A stretch of DNA of 62,262 nucleotides from positions 1-62,262 of the forward strand of contig JAEYRA010000148.1 of NCBI GenBank assembly GCA_023409755.1, given 5' to 3'. Shown here one piece after another: positions 7,828 to 45,627 of this stretch. A program made the translations under genes and the position numbers. The notes below the pieces were generated by a model. That model had not been told where the DNA came from, did not search any database, and worked only from the letters and a program-made list of their open reading frames with translations. This DNA comes from Bacillota bacterium (lineage in GTDB: Bacteria > Bacillota > Clostridia > Christensenellales > UMGS416). Every line of letters starts with the position of its first letter. Within the stretch, counting starts at the first letter, position 1.

Positions 7828-7887
7828 CAGGGTAGGGTCGGCAACACAACAGGCGGGCCGGCGGCCCGCCTCGACTTGTCAATAGAG

Positions 7888-8116
7888 GTGGGATAAGGAT
7901 TGGGAGTATGGGCCGACCGACGGTTTATCCGGCGGGAGGGAGACATAAATCAATGGAAAAAGCAGACGCAAAAACTCGCCCGTGGCGAAACGTATCCGAT
8001 GAAAGCTGCATGAGTGCTATGGGTGGGTATCGTTCGGCGACATGCGCGGCGAACGATACGAGAAAACCGAAACAAGCAGTCTGAATCGCGGACGTCGCCG
8101 CAGCGGCGTACGTGAA
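7888..8116 (+). repeat. Copy 1 of the multi-hairpin intergenic element family, between cbiM and cbiQ
   Basis: It shares the ordered motifs with the other five copies: HP1 CGACGG-TTTAT-CCGGCG + GGGAGG; CGCC-CGT-GGCG + AAACGTA; ATGAG; GTATCGTTCG-GCGACATGCGCGG-CGAACGATAC; AACAAGCAGTCTGAAT; and CGCGGACGTCGC-CGCA-GCGGCGTACGTG. Confidence 0.85.
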
Positions 8117-8135
8117 CCGAAGGAGGAACGGGCAA

Positions 8136-8942
8136 ATGGGTACGGCAGACCGGGCGATGGCGTCGTTGGGGCGCATGGAGGCGTTGACACGGCAGGACAC
8201 GCCCATTCACCGGCGGCACCCGCTGGCCCACCTGTTGGTGGCGCTAGGGTACCTCGTCACGCTGGCCTCCTTCAGGCGGTATGAGCTGGCTGGCCTGCTG
8301 CCCTTTCTCTTCTACCCGTTGGCGGTGGCCGCGCTGGGGGAGCTGCCGCTGGGGGACTTGATGCGACGGGGACTGCCGGTGCTGCCGCTGGTGCTGTTTC
8401 TCGGGGCGTTCAACCCCATCTTTGACCAGAACGTGCTGCTCTTTGCCGGGTATCGGCTGTCTGCGGGTTGGCTCTCTCTGGTGAGCATGACGCTGCGGGG
8501 GATACTGAGCGTGTTGGCGGCGCTGCTGCTGGCGGCCACCGCCGGTATGGCCGGGCTGGGCCGGGCGCTGGGGCTGCTGCGGGTGCCCCAGGTGATTGTG
8601 ACCCAACTGCTGTTCACCTACCGGTATCTCTTTGTGCTGGGGGGCGAGGGTGGCCGCATGTGGCTGGCGTACAGCCTGCGTGCCTCGGGGCAGCGGGGGG
8701 TGGCATTCCGCCAGTGGGGCAGCTTCGCCGGCCAGTGGCTGCTGCGCTCCCTCCACCGGGCGGAGCGCATCCACGCCGCCATGCTCTGCCGAGGGTTCGA
8801 CGGTGCCATGCCCGGGGGCCCGGCAGTTCCGTTCGCCTGGGCGGATGGCCTGTATGCCGCCGGGTGGATTGCCTTCTTTGTGGCTGCGCGGCTTGTGAAC
8901 CTGCCGCTGTGGCTGGGATCGCTGTTGATAGGAGGAACCTGA
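8136..8942 (+). CDS. cbiQ: ECF transporter transmembrane (T) component CbiQ
   Basis: RBS AGGAGG at 8121-8126 and ATG at 8136. Multi-TM protein with CbiQ-like sequence, positioned between cbiM and cbiO. Confidence 0.85.
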   Translation: MGTADRAMASLGRMEALTRQDTPIHRRHPLAHLLVALGYLVTLASFRRYELAGLLPFLFYPLAVAALGELPLGDLMRRGLPVLPLVLFLGAFNPIFDQNVLLFAGYRLSAGWLSLVSMTLRGILSVLAALLLAATAGMAGLGRALGLLRVPQVIVTQLLFTYRYLFVLGGEGGRMWLAYSLRASGQRGVAFRQWGSFAGQWLLRSLHRAERIHAAMLCRGFDGAMPGGPAVPFAWADGLYAAGWIAFFVAARLVNLPLWLGSLLIGGT

Positions 8943-43047: not shown

Positions 43048-43275
43048 GGCCTTTCGCGGTTGCCGCTGTGGCGACAGCCGCGATTCAGGCAACTTGTCCT
43101 TGACATGTGTGTCGCCCGCCGTACATGCCGCCGGGCGACATCGTAGCTTTCTCGCTCATGCTGTGTCTGGGAAACGATGTTCGCTTGTGGGCGGGTTTCT
43201 GTTTCCTGCCTGTGCCAGATACACTGTTCCTCCCGCCGAATGAATCGGCGGTCGGTTCGGGGTTGACCTCTTGAA
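43048..43275 (-). repeat. Copy 3 of the multi-hairpin intergenic element family (only minus-strand copy)
   Basis: The reverse complement carries CCGCCG-ATTCATT-CGGCGG+GAGG, CGC-CCACAA-GCG, ATGAGCG, GTCGCCCG-GCGGCATGTACGG-CGGGCGAC, CTGAAT and CGCGGCTGTCGC-CACA-GCGGCAACCGCG + AAAGG. Confidence 0.85.
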
Positions 43276-43292
43276 ACAGCTTTTTAGGTGTT

Positions 43293-44382: not shown

Positions 44383-45231
44383 ATGGCAACGATCACGCGG
44401 TTGGCCCCGGCCAAACTGAATCTGACGCTGGACGTGACGGGCTCCGCGCCCAACGGCTACCACACGCTGGACATGGTGATGCACACCGTGGACCTCTGCG
44501 ACACGGTGACAGTGGAGGACGCCGACGAGCTCACCATGCGCTGCCCCCAATGGCTGCCTGCAGGCCCCGGCAACCTGGCGTGGAAGGCCGCCGACCGGCT
44601 GCGGCAAGCGGCTGGAGTCACGCGGGGTGCCTGCATCACGCTGGAGAAGCGTATTCCAGCCCAGGCCGGCATGGGTGGGGGCAGTGCAGACGCCGCCGCG
44701 GTGCTGCTGGCCCTCAACGATCTGTGGGGGCTGGGCTGGACGGTGGAACGGTTGGCTGAGGCGGGCGTGACGCTGGGAGCTGATGTACCTTTTGCCTTGC
44801 GGGGCGGCACGGCGCGGGTCACCGGCATTGGCGAGCGGGTGGAGCCGCTTAAACCGGCGCGGCCCCTGTGGTTCGTGCTGGCCAAGCCCGAGGGCGGGGT
44901 GGACACCGGCGCCTGCTACCGCTGCTATGACGAACTGGGGGCGGAACGCCGCCCGGTGAACGACCGCTTTGTGCCGGCGCTGCTGGCCGGTGACCTTGCT
45001 GATATGGCGCGGTGGGGCGGCAACGCGCTGGAGCCAGCCGCGGTGGCGCTGCTGCCGGCGGTGGGGGAGCTGCTGGCGCGCCTTGCTGCCTGCGGGGGCG
45101 TGTACACCGCCATGACCGGCAGTGGCGCGGCGGTCTTTTCAACCTTCGCCAGCGAGGAGGAGGCCAGACGTGCTCTGGCTGCGCTGGGGCCAGTGCCCTG
45201 GTCGGCGGTGGCGCGGTCGTGGGCGGGCTGA
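44383..45231 (+). CDS. ispE: 4-diphosphocytidyl-2-C-methyl-D-erythritol kinase
   Basis: APAKLNLTLDV and the GHMP kinase motif GMGGGSADAAAV. 282 aa. Confidence 0.9.
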   Translation: MATITRLAPAKLNLTLDVTGSAPNGYHTLDMVMHTVDLCDTVTVEDADELTMRCPQWLPAGPGNLAWKAADRLRQAAGVTRGACITLEKRIPAQAGMGGGSADAAAVLLALNDLWGLGWTVERLAEAGVTLGADVPFALRGGTARVTGIGERVEPLKPARPLWFVLAKPEGGVDTGACYRCYDELGAERRPVNDRFVPALLAGDLADMARWGGNALEPAAVALLPAVGELLARLAACGGVYTAMTGSGAAVFSTFASEEEARRALAALGPVPWSAVARSWAG

Positions 45232-45347
45232 ATGGGGTTGCCGCAAGGCGTGAATGGAGGTTGATCTGAAGAATCCCCGTAGGGGTTTGTCAGACAGAAA
45301 AACCGGGACGCACATCTGGGTGTTGGCGCAGGCTGTCAAAAAATCGG

Positions 45348-45573
45348 CACAGGAAGAAATAGAGTGAGCCGAGCGCCGGTTCATCCGGCGGGAGGGAGCA
45401 ATTGTGGGCGTGAATACCAAATAAAATCCCGCCCGTAGGCGAAACGTATTTCCCCCAGAACCCGTATGGACGCTATCACTTGGTATCGTTCGGCGACATG
45501 TGCGGCGAACGATACGACGAAATGGGAACAAGCACTCTGAATCGCGGCTGTCGCAACAGCGGCAGACGCGAAA
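45348..45573 (+). repeat. Copy 4 (reference copy) of the multi-hairpin intergenic element family
   Basis: HP1 CGCCGG-TTCAT-CCGGCG (45374-45390) + GGGAGG; HP2 CGCC-CGTA-GGCG + AAACGTA; ATGGA; HP3 GTATCGTTCG (45483-45492) / 13-nt loop GCGACATGTGCGG / CGAACGATAC (45506-45515); GAACAAGCACTCTGAAT; HP4 CGCGGCTGTCGC-AACA-GCGGCAGACGCG (45543-45570). Confidence 0.9.
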
Positions 45574-45601
45574 AACCGGGACGCACGTCTGCGTCCCGGT
45601 T
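45569..45601 (-). terminator. Intrinsic terminator of degV (minus strand)
   Basis: AACCGGGACGCA-CGTC-TGCGTCCCGGTT. On the minus strand it is followed by TTTTTC, which overlaps the 3' end of repeat copy 4. Confidence 0.7.
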
Positions 45602-45627
45602 GCCGGTTCTCTGTGGTGTGCCTTGGC

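Follow-up and report, generated by a model that had tools for sequence, protein, structure and literature searches.

The 22-nt direct repeat that flanks a short repeated element between ispE and degV is probably a target duplication of an entire terminator hairpin, made when copy 4 of a ~250-nt non-coding, non-autonomous mobile element inserted at this locus. The window, which is the whole stretch of 62,262 nucleotides that was analyzed, is contig C180 of a metagenome-assembled genome (MAG) of 3.05 Mb in 208 contigs (63% GC, 96% complete; hereafter G000). The closest genome in the species set is that of the sister species 'MAG: Bacillota bacterium isolate OH_SBrB_79' (G003, a MAG that is 94% complete), which is collinear with the window at ~90% nucleotide identity and encodes a DegV that is 98% identical. 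For the same species elsewhere, the sole further contig found is identical to the window. The ispE–degV locus is organized as follows:

44383 to 45231, plus strand: coding sequence of ispE (GHMP kinase), the upstream gene (open reading frame list; Pfam GHMP_kinases on the identical gene in L076)
45261 to 45297, plus strand: locus-unique hairpin to the left of the repeat (RNAfold, shuffle test, no other genomic copy)
45297 to 45328, plus strand: probable left target copy, consisting of an A-run and a decayed degV hairpin (25/32 to the right copy; weak hairpin at 45303–45326)
45329 to 45569, plus strand: element copy 4, which starts with CAGGCTGTCAAAAAAT, the family 5′ terminus, and ends in ...GGCAGACGC (nhmmer, covariance model, and 5′-end alignment with its subfamily)
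45570 to 45601, plus strand: probable right target copy, consisting of GAAA and the intact 12-bp hairpin at 45574–45601 (sequence, repeat search, folding)
45628 to 46482, minus strand: coding sequence of degV, the convergent downstream gene (open reading frame list; PF02645)

A repeat search of the locus recovers the 21 of 22 matches between 45297–45318 and 45570–45591 that had been reported in the first-pass annotation, and extends them to a direct repeat of 45297–45321 and 45570–45594 (23/25, 92%). The 22-mer has no third site in the 3.05-Mb genome (blastn-short), and the local alignment of the two flanks of copy 4 scores 20.0, against a 99th percentile of 10.8 and a maximum of 14 in the mismatched-flank control. 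As had also been described, the right copy lies within an intact hairpin, with a perfect 12-bp stem (45574–45585 pairing with 45590–45601) and a 4-nt loop, that starts 27 nt past the degV stop codon. On the minus strand this hairpin is followed by TTTTTCGCG, provided that its two closing A-T pairs are left open; a simple terminator scan did not list it because these pairs are counted into the stem. From its position and shape, the hairpin is the probable minus-strand terminator of degV.

The left copy was originally thought to carry only half of the hairpin. Instead, the hairpin with its A-run can be matched over the full 32 nt (25/32 between 45297–45328 and 45570–45601), with poor agreement confined to the last 10 nt, and a weak G-U-containing fold is retained at 45303–45326; the left copy is therefore a whole but decayed copy of the hairpin. 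The family terminus CAGGCTGTC of copy 4 begins at 45329, one base past the 32-nt left copy, in keeping with the rule for the family described below. Matches to copy 4 extend from 45327 to 45573 with nhmmer (E 2e-66) and from 45482 to 45573 with R1, a covariance model of the element's 3′ domain, and the GAAA that follows copy 4 could belong either to the end of the element or to the duplicated target. The motif CAGAC does precede both repeats (45291–45295 and 45563–45567). The segment 45262–45296, which had been proposed to be a degenerate element tail, yields a local alignment score of only 7.0 against the tail consensus, a value reached by 47% of shuffles; 45261–45297 folds as a separate strong hairpin (RNAfold) that has no look-alike elsewhere in the genome. 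The open reading frames that overlap copy 4 are putative frame noise of a GC-rich genome. On the minus strand at 45426–45445, the second hairpin of the element is followed by TTTATTT and scores as terminator-like, and element copies might, judging from this score, terminate antisense transcription.

Copy 4 belongs to a large family. An nhmmer profile built from four plus-strand copies in the window gives 128 matches in G000, 47 of which span the profile of ~250 nt almost end to end, and R1 gives at least 134. Other copies in the window are located at the following positions:

7868 to 8118, plus strand: element copy immediately after a hairpin, without duplication, at a site that is empty in G003
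43052 to 43283, minus strand: element copy (nhmmer)
~47823 to 48148, plus strand: element copy between the two copies of a second duplicated hairpin
~49723 to 49969, plus strand: element copy after a terminator hairpin, at a site that is empty in G003

Most full-length copies start with (T)CAGAGTGTCTACAAACC directly behind a GC-rich hairpin that is specific to the locus, and many end in ...GACGCGAAA. One subfamily carries an additional 3′ module, GGCTGTCGAC-TTT-GTCGACAGCC-TGA, and it is only in this module-bearing subfamily that a terminal inverted repeat of ~12 nt can be defined, with CAGAGTGTCTAC at the 5′ end matching the reverse complement of the 3′ end CAGGCTGTCGAC at 10 of 12 positions (end pair CAGAGTGTCTAC...GTCGACAGCCTG). 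Copy 4 and many other copies end at GCGAAA and lack this palindromic module, from which the best-defined subfamily derives its right terminal repeat. Copies further differ by indels and inserted modules, with larger variants containing nested hairpin modules of ~78 nt. Full-length copies of G000 and G003 have a median pairwise identity of 73%, and no pair within a genome exceeds 90%.

Four hairpins are conserved in the element and covary. In the two 3′ hairpins, pairing is kept in 97% of cells, and both sides have changed in 10 of 22 pairs; these pairing and covariation values were reached by none of 500 shuffles, and slid controls collapse. A conserved T-G wobble in helix 4 (G-U in 52 cases vs A-C in 3) suggests that the plus strand would be the one that folds. 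Across the window, no Rfam 15 model matches at gathering score, and at E values up to 10 over 45000–50200 there are only chance-level matches. A scan of the element's 5′ region for promoters gave no sigma-70-like site.

Several partial or composite arrangements were also encountered. The window copy at 47823–48148 contains a 78-nt two-hairpin module (47983–48060) that occurs elsewhere alone or nested, up to three times (C28:37694, C44:18313, C53, C157, C111, C96), and that may be a second small hairpin-seeking module. At C189:43111–43401 of G000, near a contig end, the first hairpin motif CCTCCCGCCGATTCATTCGGCGGGAGG is present three times with ~134-nt spacing, and this region may be a tandem array of partial copies. 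Solo element 5′ ends of 20–30 nt (CAGAGTGTCTACAAACC...) are found directly after a hairpin and are followed by unrelated DNA at C112:24915 and C196:9185 of G000; at the latter, this DNA is an AT-rich segment with an open reading frame.

The hairpin duplication at copy 4 is one of many. We compared the left flank of each copy with its own right flank, using left flanks paired with the right flanks of other copies as the control. In G000, the flanks of 15 of 46 full-length copies, copy 4 included, share a repeat that scores beyond the control's 99th percentile, and all of these repeats end at the 5′ end of the element. The same test gave repeats for 10 of 31 copies in G003, nine of which fold as a complete hairpin of 20–33 nt, with the 3′ base of the stem coinciding with the right edge of the repeat (±1 nt) and the left edge located 0–4 nt before the stem; the tenth (L029) consists of the ascending arm only. 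The length of the duplication therefore tracks the hairpin and does not reflect a fixed stagger. Across the family, duplications measure about 18–33 nt, each a complete locus-specific hairpin. A second example lies within the window:

47804 to 47824, plus strand: left copy of the second whole-hairpin duplication (20/21 to 48174–48194)
48174 to 48194, plus strand: right copy of this duplication, followed by TTTTCG (20/21 to the left copy)

About two-thirds of copies are without a detectable flank repeat. The absence of repeats from most copies had been named beforehand as an outcome that would speak against target duplication, and to that extent the survey goes against it, with only about one-third of copies keeping a repeat; the control, however, leads one to expect ~1%, and the repeats that exist are whole hairpins abutting the 5′ end of the element.

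The hairpins that are used lie in the 3′ regions of genes. Among 44 scored copies, 15 are situated between convergent genes and one between divergent genes, and copies between co-directional pairs show no orientation bias relative to the terminated gene (7 sense and 6 antisense). Separately, in ~8 copies the 3′ end of the element (GCGAAA) is separated by 1–6 nt from a Shine-Dalgarno sequence that follows it, and the start codon is mostly found 14–18 nt downstream (window 8114–8137; C182:3129, C68:2407, and C178:8275 of G000; L157, L165, L151, and L060). This spacing is close to constant, and the element may serve as the 5′ leader of these genes.

Comparison of G000 with G003 reveals many differences in the presence or absence of an element at otherwise collinear sites. 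Seven pairs of filled and empty sites (filled in G003 and empty in G000 at L055:6494, L049, L025, L039, L032:5690, and L029, plus C41:17031 of G003) follow a single pattern, in which the empty site has one hairpin and a T-run and the filled site reads hairpin, element, hairpin, T-run, with the T-run retained only on the right side. For example, the empty site GGGGGACCGGCGAAAGCCGGTCCC-TTTTC corresponds to the filled site GGGGGACCGGCGAGAGCCGGTCCCCC / AGATTGTCTAC ... GACAGCCT / GGGGGACCGGCGAGAGCCGGTCCC-TTTTC. The element thus enters at the 3′ foot of an inverted repeat, all of which is spanned by the duplication. Some insertions that look young are without duplication (window 7868, L036, and L054). 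To the right of window copy 49723, the convergent gene lacks its native last codons relative to the empty site in G003 and ends inside the element (49948–49969). Pieces of the element 5′ terminus are also seen in element-free spacers, TCAGAGTG in the ispE–degV spacer of G006 (L004 1468–1486) and GAGCGTGTCTAG at the G003 empty site of window copy 49723 (C41:57905–57925), and these could be deletion remnants or chance occurrences.

Relatives of the window also inform on the ispE–degV locus itself. In L081, a Logan contig that encodes a DegV with 94% identity, the degV hairpin of the window is present once, preceded by ACAAAAG, and there is no element. The left flank of this contig is only weakly similar to the IspE C-terminus (E 4.1), so L081 may have arisen by deletion instead of representing an original empty site. 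In L077, from an ENA metagenome (DegV 91%), ispE and degV are separated by a 56-nt spacer with a different hairpin and no element, and in G006 the spacer is only 15 nt. In G003 the degV hairpin likewise occurs once, but it adjoins an element through a 3′ junction shared with the window, GCGAAA-AAAACCGGG, and a different hairpin precedes that element. In none of these available relatives (L077, L081, G003, and G006) is the 22-mer present twice without the element. The single hairpin of L081, where the element is absent, and the single hairpin of G003 therefore support the target-duplication reading that the first-pass annotation had put forward for this terminator-adjacent site, as do the family-wide statistics and the empty and filled sites of G003.

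The G003 element at ispE–degV is ~87% identical to window copy 49723 and, as judged through the identity between copy 4 and copy 49723, ~72% identical to copy 4. Different element lineages thus occupy one orthologous hairpin at two loci (45329–45569 vs L002 at ispE–degV, and C188:8610–8857 vs L141), which suggests that hairpins are used repeatedly or that elements are replaced by recombination between copies. With a different lineage sharing this 3′ junction in G003, more than one history can be read for ispE–degV. Tandem insertion with subsequent decay had been raised from the start as an alternative. An older element at the degV hairpin would have had its tail and hairpin duplicated by unequal or slipped recombination, or would have been joined by a second element, and would then have decayed to leave CAGAC-A-GAAAAA and a hairpin copy. 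Some observations fit this proposal: CAGAC, the 3′ motif of the element, precedes both repeat copies, CAGAC-GAAAAA could be the last bases of an older element, and the G003 element ends exactly there, abutting the same hairpin. Moreover, true arrays of element, hairpin, element, and hairpin exist at C13, C98:3999, and C173, with the tail of another copy lying before the left repeat. Other observations do not fit, as the proposed tail at 45262–45296 is not significantly element-like and 45232–45290 is without similarity to the element or to the G003 copy, despite a synteny identity of ~90%. A second insertion must in any case still duplicate the hairpin, so this history overlaps the main explanation without replacing it, and as an account of its own we consider it unlikely. 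An older resident element ending at the degV hairpin, as in G003, may nonetheless explain the CAGAC before the left copy, although nothing else of it is recognizable.

The distribution of the family is narrow. Matches to R1 number at least 134, 144, 136, and 112 in four species of a single genus; the other three species of that genus have 13, 3, and 3, and 16 genomes from eight other genera of the family have none. An exact core motif was found in only one other species genome among 185,579. Best matches between species (90–92%) join copies at non-orthologous loci; the copies C141:6256 and L039:2980, for example, match across species, and each site is empty in the other genome. Taken together, the non-orthologous best matches, the lineage differences at orthologous hairpins, and the lack of near-identical copies hint at a non-replicative movement of the element and at hairpin hot spots that are reused. 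Near-identical copies may be under-assembled, given that 26 of the 128 matches lie within 400 nt of contig ends. A search of G000 for excision footprints, in the form of tandem hairpins without an element, found only coding tandem repeats.

These data also bear on whether the element might be a fixed structured RNA gene or cis-regulatory module, with flanking hairpins that are functional parts or a repeat that is coincidental. Its four covarying hairpins, the copies that end a few bases ahead of a Shine-Dalgarno sequence and start codon, and the failure to find a transposase would all suit such a module. It would not be expected, however, to be present or absent at collinear sites of sister species with clean single-hairpin empty sites, to vary from 3 to more than 140 copies in one genus yet give no match in 16 genomes from eight others of the family, or to be flanked by locus-specific hairpins identical to the resident terminator; nor is there an Rfam match. 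We regard this explanation as the least probable of those considered here.

We searched for an enzyme that could mobilize the element. There is no multi-copy open reading frame in G000. The domains PF01609, PF05598, PF00665, PF01797, PF00078, and PF07900 are absent from this MAG and do not correlate with copy number; by name, DDE_Tnp_1, DUF772, rve, Y1, and DUF1670 are without a match in G000. PF05598 and PF01609 (DUF772 and DDE_Tnp_1) are likewise absent from G003, where PF00665 is represented only by an IS3-like open reading frame. No transposase of any family searched is specific to the element-rich genomes. As G000 and G003 are MAGs, from which insertion sequences and plasmids may be missing, the absence of a transposase is weak evidence. 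No element that bears an open reading frame between matching ends was detected in G000 or in ~400 kb of G003, and a metagenome scan with the 17-nt 5′ terminus returned 41 chance matches and no element. Only G001 carries an IS30-family transposase, in several copies (L088/L089 on C15 and six other contig ends) that are mostly cut by contig ends. This IS30-type element was considered as a partner and set aside, as its end has no obvious similarity to the element, and the IS5/IS1182-like elements of G001 and G005 were likewise rejected for want of matching ends.

The reverse transcriptase domain PF00078 is absent from five genomes of the genus, four of which have more than 100 copies. Together with the terminal inverted repeats of the module-bearing subfamily, this absence favors a DNA transposon that is mobilized in trans. 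It also weighs against a SINE-like retroposition, in which an RNA of the element ending in A residues would be reverse-transcribed from a nick beside the hairpin and a second nick of variable position would give duplications of variable length. Such duplications are typical of target-primed reverse transcription, and the GAAA end of the element, its strongly covarying hairpins, and the strand-specific conserved G-U pair would also fit an RNA intermediate. With terminal inverted repeats in one subfamily that point to a DNA transposon, no PF00078, and no near-identical daughter copies, we deem retroposition very improbable.

Under the preferred explanation of target duplication, the element would integrate at the foot of GC-rich hairpins, which are mostly intrinsic terminators, and would usually duplicate the entire hairpin. 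At ispE–degV, the target would have consisted of the degV-terminating hairpin and its A-run. Insertion would have placed one copy (45297–45328) immediately 5′ of CAGGCTGTC and the other (45570–45601) 3′ of the element, where it would still serve degV; the left copy, no longer needed, would then have been free to decay in its descending arm. We infer that the shape of the DNA positions two strand transfers, one at each foot of the inverted repeat, possibly in an extruded cruciform, in which the feet would be spatial neighbors, or through another structure-guided stagger. Repair of the resulting gaps would copy the whole palindrome. The enzyme would act in trans, and movement may be non-replicative. 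More speculatively, and with considerable reservation, this activity could belong to an enzyme outside the known transposase families, or to a host structure-specific nuclease or recombinase, that reads DNA shape by recognizing the covarying hairpins of the element and joins it non-replicatively at both feet of any extruded inverted repeat. Such an enzyme would explain why old copies, at most 90% alike, have fresh duplications and why lineages differ at a given hairpin.

Several classes of bacterial elements share some of these features. Miniature inverted-repeat transposable elements (MITEs) such as Correia, RUP, and MIC231, which are non-autonomous derivatives of DDE elements, are short, carry no genes, and reach high copy numbers, and they share terminal inverted repeats, target duplications, and folded structures; their duplications are short and of fixed length, and their copies are usually near-identical. 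The element described here resembles them in its short length, its many dispersed copies, and a target duplication that is evident from empty sites. It differs in that the duplication is a whole hairpin, the copies have a median identity of ~73% and never exceed 90% within a genome, and there is no known parent insertion sequence. The insertion sites of bacterial class C group II introns lie immediately downstream of intrinsic-terminator stem-loops, and these introns consist of a ribozyme and a reverse transcriptase in more than 600 nt, without target duplication. A group IIC intron was rejected on the basis that there is no Rfam intron match and no PF00078 and that duplications are present. 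The IS200/IS605-derived PATE and REPIN elements depend on a Y1 HUH transposase and insert 3′ of a fixed tetra- or pentanucleotide without duplication. This type was also dismissed, as PF01797 is absent from G000 and uncorrelated with copy number, and the targets share no sequence and are duplicated.

Hairpins and terminators are likewise the targets of IS1272 and TnSha1 (IS1182 family) of staphylococci, which choose them by structure with no primary-sequence specificity, and part of the hairpin is deleted or replaced without target duplication (PMC4923244, PMC5678879). Here the hairpin is kept and duplicated, and this difference, along with the lack of DUF772 and DDE_Tnp_1 in G000 and G003, led us to reject transposition of the IS1272/IS1182 type. 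Long target duplications of variable length are shared with IS1549 and IS1634 (IS1634 family), whose direct repeats of 8–514 bp have no mechanistic model (PMC2266710). For these elements, bounding of the duplication by an inverted repeat is not reported, both are autonomous DDE elements, and PF01609 is absent from G000 and G003.

The closest precedent is IS1630 of Mycoplasma fermentans, a member of the IS30 family (Calcutt, Lavrrar & Wise 1999, J Bacteriol 181:7597, cited in PMC3317919). As related in PMC3317919, four of seven copies in strain M64 are flanked by duplications of 16, 23, 25, and 26 bp and the rest by none. IS1630 is autonomous and 1.2–1.4 kb in length, with its own DDE transposase, 27-bp terminal repeats, and ~7–9 copies. 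On the evidence of PMC3317919, IS1630 shares with the element described here an insertion that duplicates hairpins, the same range of duplication lengths, and the same incomplete penetrance. The two differ in that the element here is 250 nt long and gene-less, is present in more than 100 copies with covarying internal hairpins, and inhabits high-GC Clostridia. Neither G000 nor G003 (MAGs that are 96% and 94% complete) yielded an IS30-type transposase. A comparison of the ends of IS30 from E. coli K-12 with those of the element gave no significant similarity; only the variant 5′ end of C199, GTAGATTGTCAAT, was marginal (p ~0.01–0.05 before multiple testing). A literature search found no paper on a hairpin-duplicating element that lacks genes and is present in high copy number. 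This type of event is known from IS1630, and it is apparently the vehicle that is new, a structured, non-autonomous, genus-specific element of 250 nt with more than 100 copies.

Transposition in which DNA shape selects the target and the target's own hairpin sets the length of the duplication is rare and has no mechanistic explanation, and the natural insertions in these four related species, which number in the hundreds and have corresponding empty sites, are enough to define its rule and to seek the enzyme. The family also matters for annotation. Its elements sit on the terminators of more than 100 genes per genome, where they interrupt operons, provide the ends of genes, fragment MAG assemblies, and resemble structured RNA genes, and recognizing them avoids their misannotation as riboswitches or sRNAs.
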